A stretch of DNA of 64,000 nt, taken from assembly GCA_038063915.1 (NCBI GenBank), contig JBBTUE010000004.1:38719-102718 (forward strand), in the 5' to 3' direction. The notes beneath the pieces are model-generated. The model did not search any database. It had not been told where the DNA came from and saw only the letters and a list, made by a program, of their open reading frames with translations. This DNA comes from Patescibacteria group bacterium. GTDB lineage: Bacteria; Patescibacteriota; Minisyncoccia; Phycocordibacterales; UBA9973. A program made the position numbers and the translations under genes. Shown piece after piece: positions 5,614 to 20,024 of the stretch (positions are counted from its first letter, which is position 1; every line of letters begins with the position of its first letter).

Positions 5614-6005
5614 GGGACTGACGGGCTTCGACAAAGGACCGTCCCATAGATGTGCGTGTCGAGTACTCAGAAATCTCGTTAAACTTTTTGAAAAAGACTA
5701 AGTGCAAACAAAGTCGCTTCAGCAAAATTATCTCCATACTTCGGTATGAATAATTTTGCTTTCGCATTAGCCTAACTTTAGGTCATGCGTTTGTCTACCT
5801 ATTAGACATCCGATATAGTGGGTAGGCATCATTCATCGGGTTACGAATTACAAACCGCTTGATTGTAGTTCCGACAATTAAGAGCTCGGTGTTCACTTTT
5901 TTTGTTTGTTCTCTAGAGTGAATATTTAAACCAATCGAACATTCTACACATGTAGACTCATCTATGAACATCTTTTGCATGGCGGTTCAACTCCGCCCAG
6001 TTCCA
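5614..6005 (+). ncRNA. ssrA: tmRNA (ssrA), immediately downstream of smpB
   Basis: The 5' gggactg pairs with the 3' cagttcc, including the tRNA-Ala-like G3:U70 wobble. The T-arm is ggcgg-ttcaact-ccgcc, discriminator A at 6005, and CCA is not encoded. An internal tag reading frame ends ...NNFAFALA-TAA at 5773-5775. The region is GC-rich relative to its flanks. Confidence 0.85.
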
Positions 6006-6069
6006 CAACTATTTCGATAAATTAAATATTGCTGTACAATAGAGATATTAATAATATACAAGTATTTTT

Positions 6070-6525: not shown

Positions 6526-8436
6526 GTGTATAATACCCATACTATGGATCCTAAAAAGAAAGCCCCACAACAGAAAAAGGTGCCTAATATAACCAATCAG
6601 ATCATAATTGCTATCTTCATATTCGCTAGTATTACCATTATTTACTCTATGGTCGCAAGTACGCCTTCCGAGGTGAAAAGCATGTCTATATCTGATGTGG
6701 CTAAAGGTATTAGTACTAGTACCATCGAGCGCATCGATGTATCTGGTCAAGATGTAAATGTGACTTTCAAAGATAAGACAAAAGGTATTGCAAAGAAAGA
6801 AGTCGAAAGCTCGCTCTCCACAACGCTATCAAACTATGGAGTCACAAAAGAAGAGCTCGCGTCCACTCCTATCGAAGTTAAAAGTGAGAGTGGTTTCTTC
6901 TACTGGCTCGCCAATGTCTTGCCGTTCTTGCTTCCAGTTATACTCATAGTATTTTTCATCTGGATGCTGACTCGCCAAGTCAAAGGCGCGGGTATGCAAG
7001 CTTTTACTTTTGGTCAATCAAAGGCTCGCATTACTGACCCAAATGATAAAAATAATCGCGTGACATTCAAAGATGTCGCTGGCGCAAAAGAAGCTAAAGA
7101 AGAATTGAAAGAAATTGTGGACTTCCTAAAGAATCCAAAAAAGTTTCTAGATATAGGTGCTCGTATTCCGAAGGGGGTGATTCTGACTGGTGCACCTGGT
7201 ACAGGTAAGACTTTGCTTGCAAGAGCCGTAGCAGGGGAGGCAAGCGTGCCATTCTTTCATCTGTCTGGTTCTGAATTCGTCGAGATGTTCGTCGGAGTCG
7301 GTGCTTCACGTGTGCGCGATTTATTTAAGATGGCCAAAAAATCTGCCCCAGCGATTATATTCATTGATGAGATCGATGCCGTCGGTCGTGTACGTGGCTC
7401 TGGAGTGGGTGGAGGCAACGACGAACGCGAGCAAACTCTAAACCAAATACTTGTCGAAATGGATGGATTTGAACCAAATGAAAAAGTGATAGTAATGGCA
7501 GCGACGAACCGCTCTGACGTACTTGATCCAGCGCTCCTTCGCCCAGGTCGCTTTGATCGCCGAGTAGTACTTGATCTGCCGGACCGGGCTGATCGTGAGG
7601 AAATACTTTTGATACATTCAATTAAAAAACCTTTCGCAGAAGATGTAAATCTAAAAGTTATTGCCGAGCGTACACCAGGGTTCTCTGGTGCCGACTTGTA
7701 TTCACTTATGAACGAAGGTGCGATACTCGCTGCCCGGGAAGATAGGAAAAAAGTCGCGCAGTTTGACCTAATCCGCTCAATTGAGAAAGTCATGATGGGT
7801 CCAGAGCGTAAGAGTCATTTACTTTCAGTTAAGGAAAAAGAAATCACGGCATACCATGAAGCAGGTCACGCACTTGTGGCATCGGTACTTCCTTATGCAG
7901 ACCCAGTGCACAAAGTATCAATAGTTTCTCGAGGAAGTGCAGGCGGATATACTCTAAAACTTCCACTAGAGGAACGCCGTTTACAAAGTAAGCGTGAATT
8001 CCTAGATGATATCGCTATGGCAATGGGGGGTTATGCTGCTGAGCAGATGATATTTGGTGACATTACGACTGGCCCATCAAATGATTTGCAAGTAGCGACA
8101 GGTCTTGCCCGAGCTATGGTTACACGTTGGGGAATGTCAGATGAGATTGGTCCGATAGCACTTGAGAGTGATGGGGGAAGAACAATGTTTGGCCGTGGGA
8201 TAAACGATCAAGAATACTCTGAGCGTGTCAGTGCGCTTATTGATGGGGAAGTTTCAAAAATTATGAATAATGCGCTAGCGCAAGCTGCAAAAGTACTTAT
8301 AGATAAGCGTAAAGTTCTTGATGCTATAGCTAAAAAACTTGTGGAAGTAGAGACACTCGAGCAAGATGAATACAATCAACTCATAATAGCCCATGGGATT
8401 ACTCCAAAGACTAAAGAAACAATAGTAAAAGCATAA
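6526..8436 (+). CDS. ftsH: ATP-dependent zinc metalloprotease FtsH
   Basis: N-terminal TM, Walker [22 protein letters not shown] region, HEAGHAL zinc site. Confidence 0.95.
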
Positions 8437-8935: not shown

Positions 8936-9009
8936 CCACCCTTAGCTCAGTTGGTTAGAGCACAGAGCTTATACCTCTGGGGTCCTTGGTTCGAATCCAA
9001 GAGGGTGGA
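8936..9009 (+). tRNA. tRNA-Ile (anticodon UAU)
   Basis: Hand-folded cloverleaf: acceptor ccaccct/agggtgg, D-arm gctc/gagc, anticodon stem cagag/ctctg with loop c-t-TAT-a-c, T-arm cttgg-ttcgaat-ccaag, discriminator A. Confidence 0.8.
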
Positions 9010-9019
9010 CATTCATAGA

Positions 9020-9073
9020 CTTCTCCGAAAAAATCGGTCGCGCGCAAGCGCGCGTCCCATTTTTTCGGAGAAG
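9020..9073. repeat. 54-nt near-perfect palindrome (15-bp outer stem plus inner CGCGCG stem)
   Basis: cttctccgaaaaaat-cggtcgcgcgcaagcgcgcgtccc-attttttcggagaag; the outer arms are exact reverse complements. It sits between tRNA-Ile and the left inverted repeat. Confidence 0.7.
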
Positions 9074-9079
9074 TTCAAA

Positions 9080-9245
9080 CTTGTCCTCTCATTCTAGCAT
9101 TTGCGCGAACCTTTTTCGAGCAGAAAGACCAAGAGAACCAATGAACTCCGCCACGCGCGAGTACGCGCGTCTGCCCTCGCCCACCACACTCTCCATGCAT
9201 ATTTAATTTCGCGGGGGACTCTTTTTGATTTGGTATGGGTGGGGG
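9080..9245 (+). repeat. left copy of a 166-bp inverted repeat (partner at 17007-17172)
   Basis: Hand alignment to the reverse complement of 17007-17172 gives 161/166 identities. The ORF-track entries 9075-9269(-), 9101-9343(+), 16932-17150(-) and 17051-17245(+) encode near-identical peptides because they lie in these copies. Confidence 0.9.
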
Positions 9246-9326
9246 CGAGATGTAAGTATATATTAACATTTAGAATTCAATTTAATACATTTGCAAAATG
9301 TGATAAATTGTCGCATAATATGAAAT

Positions 9327-11792
9327 ATGGAAGGAATATCTAATAAAGGCATAGAAAAAAAGGACGAAATCCCGAATTTTCACCAAATTTTTGAGGATAG
9401 GTTAAAAATAAAAAAAATAGTAAAGGATGAACTTGGACTTGATTTGGATAATATAAAGGAGAATTCAAATTCCCCTCTATATACTATTTTTGAGAAACAT
9501 TATAAACAGGAGTACGATGAATTAAATGAAAAGGCCAAGCAATTTAAAAAAGAAGATTTTAAAGACAGTGAAGGCAAGGCAAAAACAGAGTTACAAAAAC
9601 AAAAAATAGAATATGAAAAAAGTGGAGCGGAGAATATTCCCCAAATAAATTACGAAAAAATACTTGCGGACAATCCAGGATTAAAAGAAGTTTTAGATAC
9701 AAAAAGTGCTATCTGGGCTTTGAAAGATTTTAGAATGAAGCGAACATTTGAAATTTTAAATCCAAAAATAGGACTAAAGGTTAAAGAGAAAAACGAAAAA
9801 ATGCTTGGAACAATTCAAGCAGGAATAGAAGACAGTTATGATAAATTAGAAAACGAAGATCAAACCCTTGTTCGACAAGCAGAGTTACTGGAAAATAAAC
9901 AAAATTTGAGCGAGAGCGGGCATATCTGTATTGTTCCTTCTGTTGCAAAAGATTTGGAAGCTATTGGAGACAGGATGCTTACAGGCAAGCCCGTATTTCT
10001 TCACGGACCGACTGGTACTGGTAAAACTTCACTTGCTCGCTATGCGGCTGTTCATTTTACGGGCAAAGATTCTGAAATGGTTTTTTGTAACCCGCAAACA
10101 AAAGAATCAAATGTTTGGGGCAAGACAGGCATAAAACCAGCACCAGGGGGAGCGATTGAGACAGTAGAGATTTACGGTCCTCTTGCGAAAGCAATGGTAG
10201 AAGGCAAGACTGTAATTTTCGATGAATTTACAGCTCTACCAAAAGAGCAAATGGTGTTTATAAAAGGTATTTTCAACGCCAAAGTAGGGGATAAGGTAAA
10301 TATTGTTGGTAATGGTATGGTAGAAATACAGCCTGGCTTTCAGATGATTTTTACGGCAAACTTAAAATCTGAAAAAAATCCAGAGAGACAGGATTTACCA
10401 CCAGAAGTCGCTCGTGAATTTGAACAAAATAATATAAAAATCAATTATATAAACAAGGAAGAGTCATACGACGTTATGCTTTCTCGTATGCTGGGTAAAG
10501 ACGGTTCTTTGGATATGTCTTTTTATGATCTTAATACAACATTGCCAAATCTAGCTCGCGTGATGTCAGAAATACAGGAGTCTTATACTAACGCCACAGA
10601 CAAAGAAGTCGCCAGAAAAGCAGGGGCACTCGATGCTTCTGGTAAAGTTCACTCTTTGAAGAAATTTGTAATGACACAAGGTTCTATTGAAGCTATACTT
10701 TCTTCTTGGAATATAGAGAAAAAAATGAAAAGAACAGAAAAATCTTTTGCTGAATTTTTAGATGAAAGATTTAAGACTGCTTTGACTTTTGAAGAGTATT
10801 CAAAAGAAGACAGAATACTAGCGGCTAAGATTTTGGCTTCCCGTGGTTTTTTACTGACATTAACACCGAAAGAGCTTGGCTTGCCCGACGATGTTTTTAC
10901 CTTTAATACCATAAAAGCAATGCGTGGCGCTGATGCAATAGAGGAGCTAAAATTAGAATCTGGTAAAGTAAAACATTTAAATTTAAAAGAAGTTGCCGAA
11001 CTTGACCCCTTTGATAAGAGAGCATTGCTCATGAAGAAACAAGCTGAAGGACTTTTAGAGGGTGAAACTTTTAATAAAGACGAATTTTTGACTGCTTCAA
11101 GCAAAAGATTTAATAAAATTTTTGGTAAACAACCGTCAGCAGAAGTTATAACGACTACTTATAAACAAGAATCCATAAATTTAGATATAGAGAAAAAGCT
11201 CGAAGAATTTATCTCATTCTATCAACAAAGTAAGATAGACTTACCACCAAACTTTGAGAACGACATAAGGGAGATTTGGGATCGGAATGCAAATGATATT
11301 AAAGAAAGCATAGAACAGAATGGTTTTAATGATATTCTTTTGATGCCTGAAAATATGCCTTTGCCCGATCTTCACTCTAAAATGACCGAAGGATATACAG
11401 CTACATATCAAGGCGATAATTTTAAACAAGGGGGCTCGTTTGCAGGTGCCAAAAGTGAGAAAGTGGATAAACCTAGAATAGTTTTGGTTCATAAAACTCA
11501 AAACTTAAAAGACAATCCTGAACTTGCAAAAACCTTTAACATTAAAGGCGAGGATGCAATTAAATCTGAAATTCTAACTCTCGAGGATTACCTAGTTTTC
11601 CAACGAAAGTATTTTAAAGAAACAGGTAAACACTTAGACGAAGACGGTTGGACTTGGCTTGCCACAAAATCGGGCTCTCGTCTCGTCCACGCGGCTTGGT
11701 ATCCGGATGTTGGTCAGGTCGATGTGGATGCCCGTGGTCTCGGCGATCGGCATGGCGATCTCGGCGCTCGCCCTTCCCGCAGTTTCTACTAA
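9327..11792 (+). CDS. DGR target protein 1: N-terminal coiled-coil region, central MoxR/AAA_5-like AAA+ ATPase, C-terminal C-type-lectin-like variable domain (VR1)
   Basis: Walker A FLHGPTGTGKTSLARYAA, Walker B VIFDEFTAL, sensor IFTANL. The C-terminus GWTWLATKSGSRLV...LGARPSRSFY carries VR1. No signal peptide or TM. Confidence 0.85.
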   Translation: MEGISNKGIEKKDEIPNFHQIFEDRLKIKKIVKDELGLDLDNIKENSNSPLYTIFEKHYKQEYDELNEKAKQFKKEDFKDSEGKAKTELQKQKIEYEKSGAENIPQINYEKILADNPGLKEVLDTKSAIWALKDFRMKRTFEILNPKIGLKVKEKNEKMLGTIQAGIEDSYDKLENEDQTLVRQAELLENKQNLSESGHICIVPSVAKDLEAIGDRMLTGKPVFLHGPTGTGKTSLARYAAVHFTGKDSEMVFCNPQTKESNVWGKTGIKPAPGGAIETVEIYGPLAKAMVEGKTVIFDEFTALPKEQMVFIKGIFNAKVGDKVNIVGNGMVEIQPGFQMIFTANLKSEKNPERQDLPPEVAREFEQNNIKINYINKEESYDVMLSRMLGKDGSLDMSFYDLNTTLPNLARVMSEIQESYTNATDKEVARKAGALDASGKVHSLKKFVMTQGSIEAILSSWNIEKKMKRTEKSFAEFLDERFKTALTFEEYSKEDRILAAKILASRGFLLTLTPKELGLPDDVFTFNTIKAMRGADAIEELKLESGKVKHLNLKEVAELDPFDKRALLMKKQAEGLLEGETFNKDEFLTASSKRFNKIFGKQPSAEVITTTYKQESINLDIEKKLEEFISFYQQSKIDLPPNFENDIREIWDRNANDIKESIEQNGFNDILLMPENMPLPDLHSKMTEGYTATYQGDNFKQGGSFAGAKSEKVDKPRIVLVHKTQNLKDNPELAKTFNIKGEDAIKSEILTLEDYLVFQRKYFKETGKHLDEDGWTWLATKSGSRLVHAAWYPDVGQVDVDARGLGDRHGDLGARPSRSFY
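11671..11780 (+). repeat. DGR variable repeat VR1 (last 110 bp of target 1 before the stop)
   Basis: Aligns to TR 12053-12162 with no gaps. There are 16 mismatches, 15 of them at TR adenines (hand-counted). The GC-rich 3' end tctcggcgctcgcccttcccgc is conserved and resembles an IMH (initiation of mutagenic homing) element. Confidence 0.85.
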
Positions 11793-12052
11793 TTAGGTAG
11801 TTTGTAGTTTGGTATTTGTATTTTTTTTATTACTTTTGTTTTGTATTCGATTTTTTTTCTTCGGTTAGTATAACCACAAGCAATTGATTGGTTTACCGAA
11901 GTGCTTGGGATAAGTGAAAGATGGCCTTGTGTCAGATAATTTATTTTATGTAGAAATAAAAAAGAACTGCAGTTTTGTATTGGGGATGTAGCCCTGATTA
12001 ATAGAGTATGGTTTCCAATCTTGATACGGATAATACAAAGCTAAAAGTGGGG

Positions 12053-12162
12053 CGGGCTCTCGTCTCGTCAACGCGAATTGGAATCCGGATGATGGTCAGG
12101 TCAATGTGAATGCCAATGATCTCGACTATCAGAATGACAATCTCGGCGCTCGCCCTTCCCGC
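12053..12162 (+). repeat. DGR template repeat (TR)
   Basis: In the target frame it encodes GSRLVNANWNPDDGQVNVNANDLDYQNDNLGARPSR: AAY (Asn) codons at the positions that vary in the VRs. 24 adenines in 110 bp. Confidence 0.85.
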
Positions 12163-12166
12163 CGTT

Positions 12167-12544
12167 CTAAGTCGAATTTCTCGAATACTTTATCCAACCT
12201 TGGGTCATTTTTCCTATTTCTTGTAGTTTGCTTTCAATATCCAGATAAACTCTTGCTTCTAGTATTTCACAGTTTAAAGAAATTCTAAAAAGTATTTTCA
12301 GAAGCTCTATTTTTGAATTTGCTTGAGCCAAGACTTTTTCTTTTTCATATTTTGATACTTGATTGGCAAACACAAAAAGCTCAATTCCATCTAATATTGT
12401 TCTTTCTATTTTTTCTCCCAATGTGTATCTTTCGTGTTTTGGAAATTTAAAGATGAGTTTATGTGTAACCTCGTAGAGTACAAAGAGTTTTATTACAACC
12501 GGTATTTCTAATTTTGAGAAGTCCTTATGAGTATTGTTATCCAT
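12167..12544 (-). CDS. avd: Avd-like accessory variability determinant (four-helix-bundle / 23S rRNA IVS protein family)
   Basis: EIPVVIKLFVLYEVTHKLIFKFPKHERYTLGEKIERTILDGIELFVFANQVSK matches the DLxVWKKAxxL...FPKxEKYxLxxQIRRAAxSIxxNIAEG pattern of PF05635/bAvd. It is divergent from the RT, its 5' end overlaps the RT start by 18 bp, and its stop abuts the TR end. Confidence 0.7.
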   Translation of the reverse strand: MDNNTHKDFSKLEIPVVIKLFVLYEVTHKLIFKFPKHERYTLGEKIERTILDGIELFVFANQVSKYEKEKVLAQANSKIELLKILFRISLNCEILEARVYLDIESKLQEIGKMTQGWIKYSRNST

Positions 12545-13516
12545 AAAAGTTATGATGAATTATTTAGTCTTAATAATATGATTCTCGCGTGGAGAATTTT
12601 CAGGCGGGGAAAGACAAGAAAAAAAGATGTAATGGATTTTGAAATGCATTTGGAGGATAATATCTTTTCTTTATATAAAGAAGTAAAAAATGATAAATAC
12701 AAGCATTCATCATATACATATTTTCAGATTTTTGATAATAAGAAACGAGATATTTATAAGGCAGAGGTCAGAGATAGGATAATACATCAGATTATTTATG
12801 ATTATCTACTATCTTGCTTTGAACCTACTTTTATAGCGGACTCCTATGCTTCGAGGAAAAATAAAGGACAATATAAAGCTCTTGACACTTTTTGCTATTT
12901 TATAAAACTTGCTAGTAGTGCTGGCAAAGAATGTTTTGTCTTAAAATGTGATGTCAAAAAGTATTTTGACAGTGTAGATCACGATATTTTACTTGTTTTG
13001 ATAAAAGAAAAAGTTTCCTGTGAAAAAACCTTGAAAATAATAAAAGAAGTCATATCAAGTTATCGTTCATCTACTCCACCTCAAAAAGGTATACCCCTAG
13101 GCAGTATTACAAGCCAGATATTTGCCAATATTTATCTTAATGTATTAGACCAATATGTCAAAAAAGAATTGAAATGCAGATTTTATATCAGATACAATGA
13201 TGACCTCGTGGTTGTTTTTGAAAATAAAAAACACATAGTGGGCATCAGAGATAAAATGATTCTTTTTGTGAAAGAAAAGTTATTTTTAGATATACCTATC
13301 CCAAAAACAAGTATAAGAAAAATCAGATGGGGGGTTGATTTTCTCGGATTTGTAATTTTACCTCAAGCTATCTTACTTAGAGACAAAACGAAGAACAAAA
13401 TCTATTCAAATATAAAGAGGAAAAATATACACTCATATCTTTCCCTTTTAAATCATTGTAATTCTCACAATCTAAAAGCAAAGATTCTGTCGATGGAAAA
13501 AACATATAAAATTTGA
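12527..13516 (+). CDS. DGR reverse transcriptase
   Basis: RT motif A KKYFDSVDHDILL, DGR-specific motif B IPLGSITSQIFANIYLNVLDQYVKK, motif C YNDDLVV. It is ~330 aa with no maturase or endonuclease domain. Confidence 0.9.
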   Translation: MSIVIHKSYDELFSLNNMILAWRIFRRGKTRKKDVMDFEMHLEDNIFSLYKEVKNDKYKHSSYTYFQIFDNKKRDIYKAEVRDRIIHQIIYDYLLSCFEPTFIADSYASRKNKGQYKALDTFCYFIKLASSAGKECFVLKCDVKKYFDSVDHDILLVLIKEKVSCEKTLKIIKEVISSYRSSTPPQKGIPLGSITSQIFANIYLNVLDQYVKKELKCRFYIRYNDDLVVVFENKKHIVGIRDKMILFVKEKLFLDIPIPKTSIRKIRWGVDFLGFVILPQAILLRDKTKNKIYSNIKRKNIHSYLSLLNHCNSHNLKAKILSMEKTYKI

Positions 13517-13528
13517 TAGTATGGTGGC

Positions 13529-15496
13529 ATGGAAGGCATATCTATCATTGAAGCAAAAAAGGCCAAAAAAGAAGGCGAAACCACAGAAACAGGCAACCAT
13601 ACTGAAGCCTTTGCCTTTGTTGAGGAAAATCGAGACTTTTTTGAACACCATGCAAAAGGCAAGATAAAAATAGAACAAGCTCCCGAGGGCTTGGACACTT
13701 TTGCTTTTAATTTGGAAAATAACACTATCTATATCAATTCGATGTTTTATGAAAAGCTCGGCTTTTCTAAAGAAAGGACTATCTTCGCCACCTTGCACGA
13801 AATAGAGCATTTTTTAGAAAAAATTCAGATGCTTTCCGAAGACGGAGGAGAGAAAAATTTTGAAAAATACCTCAAGAAGATAGAAACTTCAAAAGCATTT
13901 GGTTTGATGGATAATTGTGTAGCGGATATTCGTGAGAACAGAACCGTAGTTTCCAAAACTAATAAAGGAATGAAGGATTTGGAAGAAAATATTTATAAAG
14001 AAGTTTTATTTCCAGAAACGGATTTTACTGAGTCTCCTCGCCATATACAATTTTGCCAAGCTATATTGCGTGAAGCAAGAGTAGAGGGCGAACAATGCGA
14101 TGTTTCGCCCGAGGTGCGACAGAAACTTGATGAACTTAAAAAAGTAAAAGGACTTATGAATATAATGACGAATCCTGAGACGCCGATGTCGACACGTTTG
14201 AAATTACAAGATAAATATATTTGGCCGAAAGTGGAGGAACTTTTAGAAAAGGATATTGAAGATAAAAAGAATAAGGAAAATAAAGACGAAAACAAGCCAT
14301 CTGATTCCCAAGATAAAAAAACAGGTGAGGGCAAGGACAATAAACCTGGTGAAAAAAATGATGACACTAAAGGTCAAAAAGGTGAGAAAGATGATAAAAA
14401 AGGTCAACAAAAAGGAAAACCTGAAAAAGGCGAGGTAAAGGAAGGTAACCCCAATAAAATTTTTGCTGATGAATATGAGAAAGCAGAAAAAAAAGTTCCC
14501 AACGCTATACCGATCGAAGATATAAAGAAAGCTTTTAAAGAATGGAAGGAAGAAAAACAGAAAAATAGTCCCGACAAAGCAGATGAGGAATATGCTGAAA
14601 AAATAGGTGTTGAAAAGAAAGATTTGCAAGAATACAGGAGGATTGCAGAAGCATTGCAGAAAATCGTGAATCCAGAAACAAATGTGAGTGTAATGGAAGA
14701 GTTAAAAAACCTTTTTTCAAGAATTATTTCCAAAAGACTCAAAGAGAAACTTGCTCCGAAATATCCAGTTGAAGAAGGCGATGAGTTGGCTGACCCTGCT
14801 CAGCTTGTGTCTGATGTAAAATCCGGCAATTTAAGTCCGAAAGTATGGGAAGATACTGAAATTAAGGAGAGAAAAGGCGACAAATTTGGCGAAGTTGAAA
14901 TAACTCTTATATGTGATAGATCGAGTTCTATGACTGATGGTAATGGTCAAAAAGCGGTTGAGCAAAGAAATTCAGCAGTTTTGATGATGGAAGTTTTGAA
15001 AGATTTTGCAGAAATGTGTGATGAGGAGAAAATGAAGGTGGATAAACCACTTCTAGTAAAATCTGAGATATACAGTTTTGCAAGTAGTTCAGAAGATAAG
15101 ACGCCTCTTAAAAAAATGGGGAAAGAACTCGGTGAAGCTGAGAGAATAAATGTTTTAAAAAAGCTTTTTGATTTGCCGGGTTCTACTACTGATTTTAATT
15201 GTTTGGAAGCTATTAACGAAGGACTGGACAATGAAACCAAACAAAAAATTGCAATAGGAGAATTAAAAAAGATAGTTTTTGTGTTTACTGACGGCGGGAG
15301 TGACAGCGTTGCGCGAGTACAAAAGGCCTTGAAAGGTTTGCGAGATGATGGTATAGTAGTGGTCGGTATTGGACTAACAGAAGCGGGAGAACCCGCAAAG
15401 ACAACGTATGCACCAAACGCGCAAGTAGTAAATAATGTTATTGATTTGCCTATTGTTTTAGGTGAATTGTTAAAGGAGCATTTAAAGGATATTTAG
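13529..15496 (+). CDS. vWA-domain protein with an N-terminal HExxH-containing region and a Lys/Glu/Asp-rich linker
   Basis: N-terminal TLHEIEHF. A K/E/D-rich low-complexity stretch lies at about residues 240-330. The C-terminal vWA domain has LICDRSSSMTDG (MIDAS DxSxS) and FVFTDGGSD. Confidence 0.75.
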   Translation: MEGISIIEAKKAKKEGETTETGNHTEAFAFVEENRDFFEHHAKGKIKIEQAPEGLDTFAFNLENNTIYINSMFYEKLGFSKERTIFATLHEIEHFLEKIQMLSEDGGEKNFEKYLKKIETSKAFGLMDNCVADIRENRTVVSKTNKGMKDLEENIYKEVLFPETDFTESPRHIQFCQAILREARVEGEQCDVSPEVRQKLDELKKVKGLMNIMTNPETPMSTRLKLQDKYIWPKVEELLEKDIEDKKNKENKDENKPSDSQDKKTGEGKDNKPGEKNDDTKGQKGEKDDKKGQQKGKPEKGEVKEGNPNKIFADEYEKAEKKVPNAIPIEDIKKAFKEWKEEKQKNSPDKADEEYAEKIGVEKKDLQEYRRIAEALQKIVNPETNVSVMEELKNLFSRIISKRLKEKLAPKYPVEEGDELADPAQLVSDVKSGNLSPKVWEDTEIKERKGDKFGEVEITLICDRSSSMTDGNGQKAVEQRNSAVLMMEVLKDFAEMCDEEKMKVDKPLLVKSEIYSFASSSEDKTPLKKMGKELGEAERINVLKKLFDLPGSTTDFNCLEAINEGLDNETKQKIAIGELKKIVFVFTDGGSDSVARVQKALKGLRDDGIVVVGIGLTEAGEPAKTTYAPNAQVVNNVIDLPIVLGELLKEHLKDI

Positions 15497-15512
15497 TTAT
15501 ACAATACAAAAC

Positions 15513-16481
15513 ATGGAAAACATATCAAAAATGGCAAAAGCCCCAGAAAAGGCAAAGAAACCTGAAAAGTCTCAAGCAGAACTTCGCCAAGCCATAGAAG
15601 AGCGCCTTTTCGGAATGAAAGGAACTATTAAAGGTGTTATGGAGGAATACAAGCAAGCTTTAGAAGAAGAAACATTTCTAGATAAACAAGGCGAAGAAGA
15701 AGGAAACGGAGAAAAAAGAAGGGAAACAATGCAAGCTAAAATAAATGCGTTCCTTGATAAAGCGGAACAAATGAAAACGAAGTTAGATAGCAAAGAAAAA
15801 TTACCTAACTACACAGAATCAATATCTACTAATTACACTCATCCAGATAATAAAGTAGAAAATATCACTTTCTCTCTGGAAGAAAAATTAGAGGAAAATA
15901 TCGCTATCTACAAAAAAACCAAATTAGACTTGCCTCCAGATTTTGAAGATCAAATCAAAGAAATTTGGGAAAATAATATTGATGAAATACAAAAAGCAAT
16001 GCAAGAGAAAGGCTTTGATGAAATGCTTCTCGTACCTGGCAATATCCCCTTAACAGAATTAAATACTAAAATGACGGATGTATATACTGAAACGTGGGAA
16101 GACAGCGACTTCAAATCTGGCGGTTCTTTTACTGGTGCTAAAAGTGAAAATGTAAATAAACCACGTATAGTACTTGCTCACAAAACTCAAAATCTTGAAG
16201 ACAGACCAGAACTCAAGAAAACTTTAAATATAAAAGGTAAGGATGTAAAAAAGGATCAAACATTAACTTTAGAAGACTATCTAATATTTCAAAGAAAATT
16301 CTTTGAAGAAACCGGCAAACATTTGGATGAATCAGGCTGGACTTGGCTTGCCACAAAATCGGGCTCTCGTCTCGTCTACGCGGATTGGTATCCGGGTGGT
16401 GGTCTGGTCGGTGTGGTTGCCGGTGGTCTCGACTTTCAGATTGACAGTCTCGGCGCTCGCCCTTCCCGCAGTTTCTACTAA
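15513..16481 (+). CDS. DGR target protein 2: coiled-coil N-terminus, paralogous C-type-lectin-like variable domain (VR2)
   Basis: The C-terminal ~180 aa (DLPPDFEDQIKEIWENN...GWTWLATKSGSRLV...GARPSRSFY) is paralogous to the target 1 C-terminus. The 30 bp upstream of the VR and ~75 bp of 3' flank are near-identical to the target 1 locus. Confidence 0.8.
   Translation: MENISKMAKAPEKAKKPEKSQAELRQAIEERLFGMKGTIKGVMEEYKQALEEETFLDKQGEEEGNGEKRRETMQAKINAFLDKAEQMKTKLDSKEKLPNYTESISTNYTHPDNKVENITFSLEEKLEENIAIYKKTKLDLPPDFEDQIKEIWENNIDEIQKAMQEKGFDEMLLVPGNIPLTELNTKMTDVYTETWEDSDFKSGGSFTGAKSENVNKPRIVLAHKTQNLEDRPELKKTLNIKGKDVKKDQTLTLEDYLIFQRKFFEETGKHLDESGWTWLATKSGSRLVYADWYPGGGLVGVVAGGLDFQIDSLGARPSRSFY
16360..16469 (+). 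repeat. DGR variable repeat VR2
   Basis: 16 mismatches to the TR, all at TR adenines (hand-counted). It differs from VR1 at many of the same positions. Confidence 0.85.
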
Positions 16482-16539
16482 TTAGGTAACTTGTAATTTG
16501 GTATTTGTATTTTCTTTTCTTTTTTATTTTGTATTCGCA

Positions 16540-17006
16540 TTTTTTTACCAGGGAGTGATTCTATCGTGCACGCACGGGTGGGTAAGTCCGCGCGTAATCG
16601 CGCGGACTGGGGCAAGCACGAGAGATGTGAGCCTTCGGGCATTACCGCTAGTGGCGTCCATGACTAAAGGATGAGCGCCGAAGAAAAACGAAGTCAGAGA
16701 AATCTAAAAGCGAAAGCGACACACTAAATATAATAATGAAAAGCGTAGAGTGGGGGTGGCGAGGGCGGACTGCTGTAATCAGCAGAGCCCGACCCGGGGA
16801 GAGGAAACTTCCTCTCCCTAAGAGGAAGCGGGCAAATTGCCCGCACAGAGGCACCTAGGCGCGAGTAGCCCTAGCGGTAATGCCCGAGGCGGATGCCGAG
16901 GGTGACACCCCTTTAGTTCGGACATCCTATTTTATAATGAACGAAGGCACCGATGTATTTGGGTTTGAATTCCGCCGCTTCTTCTTAAAAGAAGCCTGAC
17001 CGAGCC
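16540..17006. ncRNA. GC-rich structured non-coding island; candidate structured RNA, family unassigned
   Basis: ~58% GC inside a ~35% GC genome, with no credible ORF. Many hairpins, e.g. gtccgcgcg-taat-cgcgcggac (16590) and a long-range pair ggcattaccgctag(16641)/ctagcggtaatgcc(16876). A G-rich-plus-tetraloop-hairpin motif at 16758 recurs inside the inverted repeat at 17062. Confidence 0.3.
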
Positions 17007-17172
17007 CCCCACCCATATCAAATCAAAAAGAATCCCCCGCGAAATCAAATATGCATGGAGAGTGTGGTGGGCGAGGGCAGACGCGCGTAGTCGCGCGCGG
17101 CGGAGTTCATTGGTTCTCTTGGTCTTTCTGCTCGAAAAAGGTTCGCGCAAATGCTAGAATGAGAGGACAAGC
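17007..17172 (-). repeat. right copy of the 166-bp inverted repeat (partner at 9080-9245)
   Basis: 97% identical to the left copy in inverted orientation. Two of the five differences lie in one hairpin and preserve it: an A-U to G-U change and one loop change. Confidence 0.9.
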
Positions 17173-17271
17173 GAAGCTTGTCCAAGGCGGAGGCAGACGT
17201 GCCAAGCCGGGGTCGCGAGATTTTTCAGCAGAAAAATACTTGTGACGACAAGTAATGTTATAATTTAACTT

Positions 17272-17784
17272 ATGAATTCGGTAGATATGATAAAGATTAG
17301 TCGTGATAAAGGTTTCACACTTATAGAGCTTTTAGTTGTTGTCTCAATAATTAGTTTCCTATCCAGTGTCATATTTTCAACCTTAAACAATGCAAGAGTA
17401 AAAGCTCGAGATTCAGCAAGAATTCAAGATATGCATCAAATGCAACTTGCTTTAGAGCTTTATCGTTCGGCCAATGGAACTTATCCAGTAGGCGGATGGT
17501 TGTATAGTTATGATGCTAGTTGGAATACATTACAAACTGCCCTGACCCCCTATATGAAAACTTTACCAAAAGATCCAAAAAATAGTGCGATTGATCCATG
17601 GTGGACTGGTAATTACACCTATGCATATTATTTTGGTGGTGCATCAAGTTACGATTTAGTGACCCAACTAGAAGATCAAAATAATAAATATAGATGTGAA
17701 CTTAAGCAGTGGATGTTTTATAATGCTGGATCTTCTTGGTGTAGTATAGGTTATAGTAATTATATTTATACAGGCCACCAGTAG
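17272..17784 (+). CDS. type IV pilin-like protein (prepilin-type N-terminal cleavage/methylation domain)
   Basis: KGFTLIELLVVVSIISFLSSVIF class-III signal peptide. Confidence 0.8.
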   Translation: MNSVDMIKISRDKGFTLIELLVVVSIISFLSSVIFSTLNNARVKARDSARIQDMHQMQLALELYRSANGTYPVGGWLYSYDASWNTLQTALTPYMKTLPKDPKNSAIDPWWTGNYTYAYYFGGASSYDLVTQLEDQNNKYRCELKQWMFYNAGSSWCSIGYSNYIYTGHQ

Positions 17785-17795
17785 TATTAATTAAT

Positions 17796-20024
17796 TTACT
17801 CAAAATGTAAATCTAAATTTTTATCGGCAAGGGTTTTTTCAAGTAGGGGAAGGGAGGCGAGAGTGGAATCTTTTTCTATAAGTTTAATTGCTTCAGTTCG
17901 CGCAGCCTCTACCATTTTAATATTTTTTATCGCTTCCATGCCAAGATCGGTGATGCCCCATTGCTTATCTCCAGAGAGTAGCCCTGCACCACGTAAAGAA
18001 AGATCTAGTTCTGCGAGCTCAAATCCACTACTGGCTTTCACCAATGCTTTCAACCTATCTACAGTTTTATCAGTCTTCGCATCAGCAAATAAGTAACAGT
18101 ATGATTGATGAGTACTTCGGATAACACGTCCTCGGAGCTGGTGAAGCTGTGCCAACCCAAAGCGCTCGGCGCCTTCTATAATGATAGATGTAGCATTCGG
18201 AACATTTACTCCTACTTCGATAACAGATGTTGAAACAAGGATGTCTATCTCATGGTCTTTGAATTCTTGCATGATATCTTCCTTTTTTTGTTTAGTCATC
18301 TTTGAGTGCATGACACCAATGCGATATTTAGGAAAAACTTCTTTCGCAAGACGCTTTGCTTCAGCAAGAACTGATTTTGCTATCACAGCTAGCTCCTTAT
18401 CTGGATCGGGTTCATTTATGCGCGGACAAATCACATATACTTGCCTGCCATTTTCTAATTCAAGCCGGACTTTTTCATAGGCCTCTTCTCTTTTGTTTGG
18501 TGACACAATTTCTGTAACAACTTGTTTACGACCAGCGGGCATCTCGTCAATAATACTTAGATCTAGATCACCATAAATGGTTAGTGCAAGTGTCCTAGGG
18601 ATAGGAGTCGCAGTCATAGAAAGGTAATGCGGGGCGTGGCCTTCTTTCTTGGCAAGTTTCATACGCTGATTAGTACCAAAGCGATGCTGTTCGTCTATTA
18701 TTACTAGTCCTAAGTCTTCAAATTCTACAGTCTTGGATATTAGGGCGTGAGTACCTATGACTATTGGTATCTCGCCGTTCTTTACCCATTTGAGGAGTTG
18801 GTTCCTTGAAATCGGAGTCCAAGTTCGGACTTGCTTTCCATTTTCGAAGTGGGCGCTCTTACTTGGGAATTTTCGACAGCCACTGCCTGTAATAAGGCCG
18901 ATGGATATGCCAGTGTGATCAAAGTATTCTATAAAACTCTCATAAAGTTGGGTGGCGAGAACTTCAGTCGGAGCCATGTAAGCAACTTGTAAATTACCGA
19001 AATTCTGCCCTGTCGGTCTATTTTTTATTACTGCATAAGCAACTGTTGCGGCGACAAATGTCTTGCCACTACCGACGTCGCCCTCGATAAGTCGGGACAT
19101 CGGTTTATCTTTTTTAAAATCATCCAAAATAGTGCGAATAACATCACTCTGCGCTTTTGTTGGAGTGAAGGGAAAGCGAGAGATGAAATCTTTAATATCT
19201 GTCTCTGGGATTTTAAGCTTATAGGAAAATAGTTCCTCGTACGCTTTACGTTCCTGCTGGCGTGCAAGCTGGATGAAAAATACTTCCTCGAAAGCGAAAC
19301 GCTTGCGAGCAATCTCGGAATGCTCGGCCTTTTGTGGCATATGTATCCACACAAGGGCCGTATGGAGGGCTGGTAATTTATATCTAGAGATAATATCAGT
19401 GGGTAAGTAATCAACAATATCTTTGGTACAACTTTGTTTGAGTATCTTCTCTACAGCGTGATATATCCATTTCGAAGTTATTCCTCTCGATTCTCCATAA
19501 ATTGGATATCCAAACTGGTGCCCCCGCTCACCTTTTTTAAAAAGTGAATCGTGAATATCAATTGGCAGTATATCCTCGGGATTTATCTCTGGATTCGTTA
19601 GGGTTAGTCCATAAGTTTTATGGTTGGATATTTTCCCAGTGACTCTGACTGTAGAGCCTTCCTTTAGCATTTTTGCTAAATATGGCTGATGAAACCAAAT
19701 GATATTGATTGAACCAGTTAAATCAGAGAGCAGTGCCTGGCCCATAGGTATTTTACTCTTCCAACCTTTCTTGGCTTTAAGTTTAGAAATTGTACCTAAA
19801 ATTGTGGATGTCTCACCCTCTATAAGGTCACTAATATTTTTTACCTCCGATATATCTGTATATCTAGAGGGGAAGTAATAAAGTAAATCACGAATAGTAT
19901 GAAGTCCTAGTCGCGCCAGAGCTCTCTTTTGGTTGGTGTCAATTCTAAACTGTGTTTCAAGTTTATCGTGGAGCTGCATAGTTTGAAGATGGAGGTTTAC
20001 TACCTCCATACATGACAATACCAC
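17796..20024 (-). CDS. recG: ATP-dependent DNA helicase RecG
   Basis: N-terminal wedge/OB region, helicase motifs GDVGSGKTFVAA and DEQHRFG, C-terminal helicase domain; ~740 aa. Confidence 0.85.
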   Translation of the reverse strand: MVLSCMEVVNLHLQTMQLHDKLETQFRIDTNQKRALARLGLHTIRDLLYYFPSRYTDISEVKNISDLIEGETSTILGTISKLKAKKGWKSKIPMGQALLSDLTGSINIIWFHQPYLAKMLKEGSTVRVTGKISNHKTYGLTLTNPEINPEDILPIDIHDSLFKKGERGHQFGYPIYGESRGITSKWIYHAVEKILKQSCTKDIVDYLPTDIISRYKLPALHTALVWIHMPQKAEHSEIARKRFAFEEVFFIQLARQQERKAYEELFSYKLKIPETDIKDFISRFPFTPTKAQSDVIRTILDDFKKDKPMSRLIEGDVGSGKTFVAATVAYAVIKNRPTGQNFGNLQVAYMAPTEVLATQLYESFIEYFDHTGISIGLITGSGCRKFPSKSAHFENGKQVRTWTPISRNQLLKWVKNGEIPIVIGTHALISKTVEFEDLGLVIIDEQHRFGTNQRMKLAKKEGHAPHYLSMTATPIPRTLALTIYGDLDLSIIDEMPAGRKQVVTEIVSPNKREEAYEKVRLELENGRQVYVICPRINEPDPDKELAVIAKSVLAEAKRLAKEVFPKYRIGVMHSKMTKQKKEDIMQEFKDHEIDILVSTSVIEVGVNVPNATSIIIEGAERFGLAQLHQLRGRVIRSTHQSYCYLFADAKTDKTVDRLKALVKASSGFELAELDLSLRGAGLLSGDKQWGITDLGMEAIKNIKMVEAARTEAIKLIEKDSTLASLPLLEKTLADKNLDLHFE

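Follow-up and report, generated by a model that had tools for sequence, protein, structure and literature searches.

A GC-rich island lying between a diversity-generating retroelement (DGR) and the right arm of a long inverted repeat was analyzed in a 64,000-nt stretch of a Patescibacteria group bacterium (GenBank assembly GCA_038063915.1, contig JBBTUE010000004.1, positions 38,719 to 102,718), hereafter called the window. As judged by conservation and covariation, its core (positions 16550 to 16916, plus strand) is a predicted large structured noncoding RNA that is uncatalogued and is conserved in Patescibacteria, the candidate phyla radiation (CPR). The conserved locus continues from this core through a spacer of about 90 nt into a second structured module, which is the element recognized as the right inverted repeat in an earlier first-pass annotation, and two copies of this module bracket a slot occupied by lineage-specific, unrelated genes. 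On balance, we lean toward the reading that this is a new structured RNA whose locus may form the constant border of a recombinase-linked cargo slot bounded by inverted repeats. A literature search found neither the RNA nor this architecture described.

Homologs were collected by scanning GTDB, with one genome per species, for the exact seed GAGTGNGGNNGGCGAGGGCNGAC. The scan yielded 23 loci, comprising 5 chance matches in GC-rich sequence and 18 loci from AT-rich CPR genomes, mostly labelled Nomurabacteria or Paceibacterota, and these 18 aligned with the window over the whole island, i.e., beyond the motif alone. A second invariant block, GCCCGAGGCNGATGCCGAGGG, matched at least 119 metagenome contigs. 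A hidden Markov model (HMM) built from the first alignment identified a full-length copy in each of 82 extracted loci, a number that includes the window and a duplicate contig; the copies range from 361 to 540 nt and lie on contigs of 31 to 59% GC from CPR genomes and from groundwater and sediment metagenomes. The GC-richer metagenome loci carry no taxonomic label. Within the window, nhmmer returned a single full-length match (E = 3.7e-98), corresponding to an RNA of 367 nt with 57% GC in a genome of 38% GC. The 5′ start is a near-invariant AGGGAG, and the 3′ end lies just past the invariant GAUGCCGAGGGUG. The unpaired nucleotides are very highly conserved across this whole range of base composition, and there is apparently one copy per locus or window.

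The first-pass annotation had described the island as about 58% GC, free of credible open reading frames (ORFs), and rich in hairpins, and had suggested an uncharacterized structured RNA. The enrichment is real, with the island forming the most GC-rich 500-nt bin in the 64 kb (average, 38.1%), but the figure was slightly high: we measured 53.5% for 16540 to 17006 and 56.7% for 16550 to 16916. Only short ORFs of 54 to 72 codons overlap the island, none of which is conserved in relatives. The listed hairpins, the long-range complement, and the recurring motif were all present, 2 to 10 nt from where they had been placed. They include the hairpins GTCCGCGCG-TAAT-CGCGCGGAC (Table 1) and GAGAGGA-AACT-TCCTCTC (16799 to 16816) and a 14-nt complement (16638 to 16651 with 16871 to 16884) that forms the middle of an 18-bp helix. 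The G-rich motif GAGTGGGGGTGGCGAGGGCGGAC (16748 to 16770), followed by a hairpin at 16770 to 16785, has a relative at 17060 to 17082 with a hairpin at 17083 to 17096. As a 23-nt pattern, it matched three times in the window (9169 on the minus strand, 16748 and 17060 on the plus strand) versus no match in 100 shuffles. The folding energy of the island gave z-scores against shuffled sequences of −5.6 for the plus strand and −7.2 for the minus strand.

Secondary structure was evaluated on A1, a MAFFT alignment of 72 sequences, with controls in which pairing partners were slid by one to three columns. The RNAalifold consensus contains 49 pairs, 20 of which show compensatory changes. In this model 97.5% of the alignment cells are paired, compared with 40 to 48% in the slid controls; pairs with double changes number 20 versus 6 to 8, and the covariation score is 0.213 versus at most 0.086. 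None of 500 shuffles reached the observed values. The central feature is the 18-bp long-range helix, which is 99.5% paired in the 72 sequences, shows compensatory changes in 5 of its 18 pairs, including AU-to-GC and CG-to-UA exchanges, and is continued by a second helix (16671 to 16679 with 16858 to 16866). By this comparative evidence, the 18-bp helix appears to organize a multihelix domain with many invariant unpaired nucleotides. In the UAAU hairpin of the 5′ domain, the stem is kept while its sequence varies; in A1 (columns ~90 to 140), the stems GCUCGCGC/GCGCGAGC, AGUUUUGC/GCAAAACU, and GUCCGUCU/AGACGGAC, among others, occur. The hairpin following the G-rich motif occurs in 24 distinct sequences, every one of which folds as a hairpin. 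Covariation is likewise seen in the GGGGAGAGG/CCUCUCCCC hairpin (16796 to 16819) and in the GCGGGC/GCCCGC stem (16828 to 16844), the latter carrying an additional hairpin of about 48 nt in many relatives. A fold constrained by the conserved helices pairs the 5′-terminal AGGGAGU with the 3′-terminal CACCCCU.

These features also point to the strand of the RNA. Wobble pairs are abundant when the plus strand is read (UG in 30 sequences at columns 236/620, GU in 26 sequences at columns 657/665), and as they would appear as A-C on the other strand, the RNA strand should be the plus strand. Loops of the UUCG (16631 to 16640) and GAAA (16710 to 16717) type are present on the same strand. A1 further contains indels that are not multiples of three and differing 5′ modules. 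Compensatory changes on one strand together with the lack of a conserved ORF are what is generally expected of a structured noncoding RNA.

Rfam 15 was searched with the window at the gathering thresholds and at E ≤ 10, with 31 homolog loci at the gathering thresholds, and with one locus (L059; L numbers designate homolog loci) at E ≤ 5. The search recovered the tmRNA and the tRNAs of the window; over positions 16540 to 17250, there was nothing at the gathering thresholds and only chance-level matches at E ≤ 10, and there was no match at the position of the RNA in the 31 loci or in L059. With this result and the strong covariation and conservation among the collected homologs, the suggestion of an uncharacterized structured RNA was borne out. 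Several known classes were considered individually. For RNase P RNA, whose P4 is GGAAAGUCCGG and ACAGAA-CCGGCUUA, neither RF00010 nor RF00011 matched even at E ≤ 10, and the GUAAGUCCGCGCG stretch forms a local hairpin. Moreover, L005 encodes a genuine RNase P RNA (772 to 1087) 5 kb from its copy of the RNA, which is therefore not RNase P RNA. The transfer-messenger RNA (tmRNA; RF00023, having a tRNA-like domain and a tag frame) is located elsewhere in the window, as the annotation had said (5614 to 6008, 118.6 bits). A group II intron was rejected because domains V/VI (RF00029 and relatives) gave no Rfam match and the reverse transcriptase (RT) of the window belongs to the DGR cassette, as shown by the adjacent Avd gene and by the template repeat (TR) and variable repeats (VR). 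A retron msr-msd or DRT noncoding RNA does not fit, most loci being without an RT and the case of Drt2 being a single one (L070). Against an IS110 bridge RNA or an omega RNA of IscB or TnpB stands the neighborhood, which consists of a winged-helix gene and variable cargo; the sole IS110-like gene, in L019, interrupts the RNA. No link to phages was found, since a conserved 21-mer was absent from IMG/VR and blastn against GenBank phages was empty.

The segment 3′ of the core, termed element 2 (16917 to 17250), follows the core directly in many loci according to nhmmer and alignments. It is structured as well, with compensatory changes in 16 of 29 predicted pairs and again plus-strand wobbles. 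Its parts follow in a fixed order, from a covarying hairpin through a long helix closing an A-rich loop and a module of GCGAGGGCRGAC plus hairpin (17060 to 17096) to a promoter. This promoter, at the outer end, is sigma-70-like and points away from the RNA; it reads TTGAAA-17-TAnAAT in relatives and is predicted as TCGAAA-17-TAGAAT (17132 to 17160) in the window. The first-pass annotation had tied the island to the inverted repeat, and this tie holds, in that the right arm (IR-R) is the 3′ part of the conserved extension of the RNA locus, and many lineages show the same inverted-repeat architecture. Specifically, the 3′ part of element 2 recurs in inverted form 2.7 to 8.9 kb upstream of the RNA in 18 of the 25 loci whose upstream sequence extends to 6 kb or more; counting all loci, at least 30 have such a copy. 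The repeats measure 64 to 371 bp. In every case they start approximately 86 to 118 nt past the core and end 6 to 15 nt past the −10 box, i.e., near the expected start of transcription. The two copies present in one locus mostly share 95 to 100% identity, whereas those of different loci have diverged strongly, which indicates that the copies evolve in concert. Many contigs begin exactly inside the upstream inverted copy, the signature of an assembly break at a repeat, and the same breaks are found in other assemblies of the organism of the window. Among the loci, no tRNA was found consistently beside the left repeat. A mobile element with terminal inverted repeats was considered and rejected, because no target-site duplication was seen at 9080 and 17171, the repeats enclose no conserved gene other than the winged-helix gene beside the RNA, and the locus stays near recG in three related genomes. 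The palindrome at the outer end of IR-R aligns, in alignment A2, with a CGCACGC-GGA-GCGTGCG hairpin of other loci.

From locus to locus, the repeats enclose unrelated genes, which are mostly oriented toward the RNA. Judged by the appearance of their sequences, we take the large genes in L059 to be helicases, those in L086, L089, and L080 to be restriction-modification systems, the cargo of L107 to be an ABC transporter, and that of L124 to include a RecQ helicase with other genes. In L059, L086, and L104, both flanks are common (67 to 91% identity) and the cargo is different, indicating that the frame is inherited while the cargo turns over. The only gene found conserved inside the repeats is one next to the RNA: most homologs lie just downstream of a gene for a protein of 200 to 270 residues, whose N-terminal region is acidic and rich in proline and whose C-terminal winged helix ends in ...GKTGxAVxYSxI. 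This protein gave only weak generic helix-turn-helix matches in Pfam and NCBIfam and is not encoded in the window. In seven loci (L014, L100, L010, L026, L145, L096, and L080), a small ORF is present between the winged-helix gene and the RNA; its C terminus (...EGLDEEEAVELKDDL) is conserved and acidic, and it occurs in AT-rich and GC-rich lineages. In many loci, the gene upstream, be it the winged-helix gene, the small ORF, or an RT, terminates with a stop codon 0 to 15 nt before AGGGAG. No conserved promoter was found 5′ of AGGGAG across the loci, and no terminator with a U-tract was found after the core on the plus strand. As upstream stops abut its first base, the RNA probably arises from the 3′ end of the cargo/winged-helix operon.

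In 13 loci, the repeat arms have as immediate neighbors genes for large serine recombinases of 477 to 515 residues, in which Resolvase, Recombinase, and Zn_ribbon_recom domains were recognized. In L059, L086, L104, and L105, the gene is located just outside the left arm, whose outward promoter points into it; in L086, L136, L141, L096, L131, L127, L078, and L089, it is located just past the right arm. Around the right-arm gene there is a second pair of inverted repeats, in which the C terminus of the recombinase itself is encoded, and in L086 the two repeat families abut at the start region of the promoter. For the genes of L086 (9183 to 10826), L136 (4455 to 6398), L141, L096, and L131, these flanking repeats were seen to encode the C-terminal 35 to 60 residues. 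Between its own repeats, the gene has either orientation, depending on the locus (plus in L131, L096, and L127; minus in L086, L136, L141, L078, L089, and L105). A recombinase flanked by repeats of its own C terminus and present in both orientations relative to an outward promoter looks like a self-inverting on/off switch.

Taken together, the RNA, its 3′ extension, and the inverted copy could constitute the constant frame of a recombination platform at which cargo would be exchanged or inverted, the DGR being the cargo presently held by the window. The RNA would be cotranscribed with the upstream cargo/winged-helix operon and then processed, and the processed product would probably act as a stable RNA, perhaps together with the co-encoded winged-helix protein. 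A more specific version, in which the RNA and the duplicated 3′ module are a functional partner of the adjacent large serine recombinase, such as a scaffold, regulator, or guide, we regard as improbable. If true, it would mean a CPR-specific, RNA-associated, integron-like platform for gene capture and inversion and thus a new class of recombination system, with defense systems and DGRs swapped in and out beside an ornate RNA of about 0.6 kb.

Several observations weigh against the platform reading. No serine recombinase gene lies within the 64-kb window, and the left junction has the same segment orientation in two independent assemblies (the window and L147). A search for opposite-orientation contigs of the same strain with a protein of the left flank returned no such contig, all those found having the same orientation or breaking off at the repeat. 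Consequently, an inversion in this organism would be hypothetical, and recombination is deduced from relatives. Of the 25 loci with 6 kb or more upstream, 7 showed no inverted copy in the available sequence; the RNA therefore also occurs outside the repeat architecture and may serve a housekeeping function of its own. Note also that the homologs were gathered by exact-match seeds, which favor conserved variants and inflate the conservation of the seed blocks, that MAFFT misaligns the variable hairpins, so that the structural tests cover only part of the fold, and that the ends and the processing of the RNA are predicted from the sequence.

The main rival is that the RNA has an independent housekeeping function, as the scaffold of a ribonucleoprotein or as a ribozyme, its gene being merely a landmark or attachment region for recombinase-driven islands without a role in recombination. 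We consider this possible but rather unlikely. The strong conservation of unpaired nucleotides over 31 to 59% GC, the apparently single copy, the loci without a visible inverted copy, the lack of a recombinase in most loci, and the proximity to recG in the window, L057, and L019 are all in line with it. It does not account well for the duplicated repeat, which is part of the RNA locus and 95 to 100% identical to the resident copy in most loci, or for the flanks of the slot in L059, L086, and L104, which are coinherited together with the recombinase. Less probable still is a purely cis-acting element at the 3′ end of the cargo operon, i.e., a stabilizer, terminator, or insulator against read-through followed by an outward promoter that restarts transcription. 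The orientation of most cargo genes toward the RNA, the upstream stops abutting AGGGAG without a conserved promoter before it, and the order of structured module and outward promoter in both arms would suit such an element, but 370 to 540 nt with dozens of invariant unpaired nucleotides go far beyond the needs of a terminator, the plus strand carries no U-tract terminator after the core, and the left arm keeps the promoter although it lacks the core. That the locus acts at the level of DNA only, as recombination sites or transposon ends without any RNA function, is the least credible proposal: the long, near-identical inverted repeats and the adjacent serine recombinases that are present speak for it, yet the core is not repeated, the stems covary while loops and junctions are invariant, and the helices tolerate G-U but not the A-C of the other strand.

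The first-pass annotation had further suggested that the island is tied to the DGR, for example as a processing element. An accessory RNA for reverse transcription or homing of the neighboring retroelement now appears very unlikely. A tblastn search with the DGR proteins of the window, combined with an RT HMM, found an RT within about 2 kb of the RNA in 6 of approximately 100 loci, far above chance; five are DGR-type and one is Drt2. In all six, the RNA marks the downstream end of the cassette. It abuts the stop of the DGR-type RT in L134, follows an RT and one or two small winged-helix genes in L092, L106, and L007, and comes after a VR in L039 as in the window, starting approximately 75 to 125 nt beyond the repeat in both. 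The L070 enzyme (11 to 1003; PADLOC, E = 1.7e-78) is a Drt2 defense RT rather than a DGR RT and ends 4 nt before the RNA; the region usually occupied by the Drt2 noncoding RNA upstream falls off this contig. This excess of RTs is explained by the position upstream of the RNA being a general cargo slot. None of the other homolog loci has an RT, although upstream sequence of 1.5 kb or more is available for about 64 loci, and the slot elsewhere holds unrelated genes, including what are presumably restriction-modification genes, helicases, and transporters. In the window, the TR lies 4.4 kb upstream of the RNA, with avd and the RT in between, which likewise argues against a DGR RNA. With RTs in only six loci, and one of these Drt2, the DGR is best regarded as cargo of the slot.

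By their defining features, the locus belongs to none of the known systems it resembles, i.e., ornate noncoding RNAs, islands at tRNA, tmRNA, or rlmH genes, invertible segments, and integrons. It shares with the ornate RNAs OLE, GOLLD, ROOL, HEARO/omega RNA, and raiA the size (about 370 to 540 nt for the core and 600 to 850 nt with the 3′ extension), a multihelix architecture with conserved junctions, the form of a GC-rich island in an AT-rich genome, and the restriction to one lineage, but no Rfam 15 sequence or structure match connects it to any of them. GOLLD and ROOL occur in phage or viral contigs, where the present RNA was not found, and HEARO lies next to an IscB or TnpB nuclease, which the present RNA does not. 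Its coupling to an inverted duplicate of its own 3′ extension is unique in this comparison. In SCC elements such as SCCmec, the Ccr enzymes, also large serine recombinases, target the 3′ end of rlmH. The combination of large serine recombinases, a conserved chromosomal anchor, highly variable adjacent cargo, and border repeats is thus similar. However, the anchor here is a structured RNA locus instead of a protein gene, the cargo lies 5′ of it, the repeats are inverted, near-identical, and 64 to 371 bp in length rather than short direct or inverted att repeats, and in L059, L086, and L104 the recombinase gene resides outside the slot and is conserved there.

At tRNA and tmRNA integration sites, a conserved structured-RNA gene likewise sits at the edge of a hypervariable island, the opposite edge of which carries a duplicate of part of the RNA locus. 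There the duplicate is direct, whereas here it is inverted and covers the 3′ extension and promoter but not the end of the mature RNA; moreover, neither a tyrosine integrase nor a consistently adjacent tRNA is present. Invertible segments and shufflons (Gin/Hin/Cin, hsdS, invertible promoters) also have inverted repeats bracketing a segment, a serine recombinase nearby, and, as here, a recombinase gene in both orientations between its own repeats. They differ in that their enzymes are small invertases, not large recombinases as described above, and the present repeats are much longer than a recombination site; inversion of the cargo slot would leave both junctions unchanged, and none was observed in this strain. 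Chromosomal integrons resemble the locus in having a resident recombinase transcribed away from mostly co-oriented unrelated genes and in the turnover of cargo in a conserved frame. They use a tyrosine enzyme and attC sites, whereas the enzyme here is a serine recombinase, no attC-like repeats separate the cargo genes, and a large RNA lies at the far end.

The CPR accounts for a large share of bacterial diversity, and to our knowledge almost nothing has been reported on its noncoding RNAs. It was signals such as invariant junction nucleotides, here seen across 31 to 59% GC, that pointed the way to RNase P, tmRNA, OLE, omega, and bridge RNAs in the past. The physical coupling of such an RNA to long, homogenized inverted repeats, outward promoters, large serine recombinases, and a hypervariable slot provides a concrete, testable locus at which to ask how tiny genomes acquire and shuffle accessory and defense genes, including DGRs, the Drt2 RT, and likely restriction-modification genes. 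The locus also explains breaks in the metagenome assemblies of these organisms.

Table 1. Features of the RNA locus and its surroundings (window positions; IR-L and IR-R, left and right inverted-repeat arms)
Feature	Positions	Strand	Remarks
tRNA	8936-9009		
Terminator hairpin	9019-9074		
IR-L, 166-nt repeat arm	9080-9245	-	Inverted duplicate of 3′ part of element 2, including outward promoter, which points left here
Cargo between repeats (DGR)	9246-16549	+	Repeat search and Pfam matches
DGR target 1	9327-11792		AAA_5 domain; VR1 at 11671-11784
DGR TR	12053-12166		
DGR Avd	12167-12544	-	
DGR RT	12527-13516		
VWA protein	13529-15496		Between RT and target 2
DGR target 2	15513-16481		VR2 at 16360-16473
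Core domain, conserved structured RNA (predicted)	16550-16916	+	nhmmer, 72-homolog alignment, covariation, constrained fold
5′-domain hairpin GUCCGCGCG-UAAU-CGCGCGGAC	16586-16607	+	Variable-sequence stem
Long-range helix, 5′ arm	16633-16650	+	Contains ggcattaccgctag of first-pass annotation; pairs with 16872-16889 and closes central multihelix domain
G-rich motif GAGUGGGGGUGGCGAGGGCGGAC plus hairpin CUGCUG-UAAU-CAGCAG	16748-16785	+	Motif scan recovered the family in GTDB genomes
Conserved hairpin GGGGAGAGG-AAAC-UUCCUCUCCC(U)	16796-16819	+	Helix 5; 99.7% paired, compensatory changes in 5 of 9 pairs
Long-range helix, 3′ arm	16872-16889	+	
Unique spacer, 5′ part of element 2	16917-17005	+	Kept directly 3′ of core in many loci; includes hairpin 16979-16997
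IR-R, 3′ part of element 2	17006-17171	+	97% complementary to 9080-9245
Palindrome GGACAAGC-GAA-GCTTGTCC	17164-17182		Center coincides with outer end of IR-R
Pilin-like gene	17272-17784		
recG	17796-20024	-	

The DGR of the window is complete and has two targets, an 821-residue AAA_5 (MoxR-like) ATPase with a C-terminal VR and a protein of 322 residues. Avd is encoded on the opposite strand and overlaps the start of the RT gene, and the identity between the TR and each VR is 85%. On their 3′ sides, the two target genes have T-rich flanks (11822 to 11858 and 16510 to 16546) that are 78% identical and both contain TTTTGTATTCG. A similar GTATTC is found 20 to 26 nt before AGGGAG in loci where that position is coding sequence of the winged-helix gene.

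In L019, an ORF (509 to 1582) interrupts the RNA in its 3′ end, the insertion lying within the GCCCGAGGCGGAUGCCGAGGG block that is invariant elsewhere; judged by its N-terminal sequence alone, it is presumably an IS110-family transposase. L121 carries a group I intron (7758 to 8013; Rfam, 69 bits) about 500 nt downstream of its RNA copy and near a tRNA. In the related genomes of the window, L057, and L019, the side and relative orientation of the RNA with respect to the nearby recG vary, RNA and recG being on the same strand in L019 and convergent in the window and L057, which indicates rearrangements around the locus. Five genes of the window (at 17311, 25268, 36196, 36864, and 39572) have in common an N-terminal type IV pilin methylation/transmembrane motif; one of the five immediately follows IR-R with its outward promoter.

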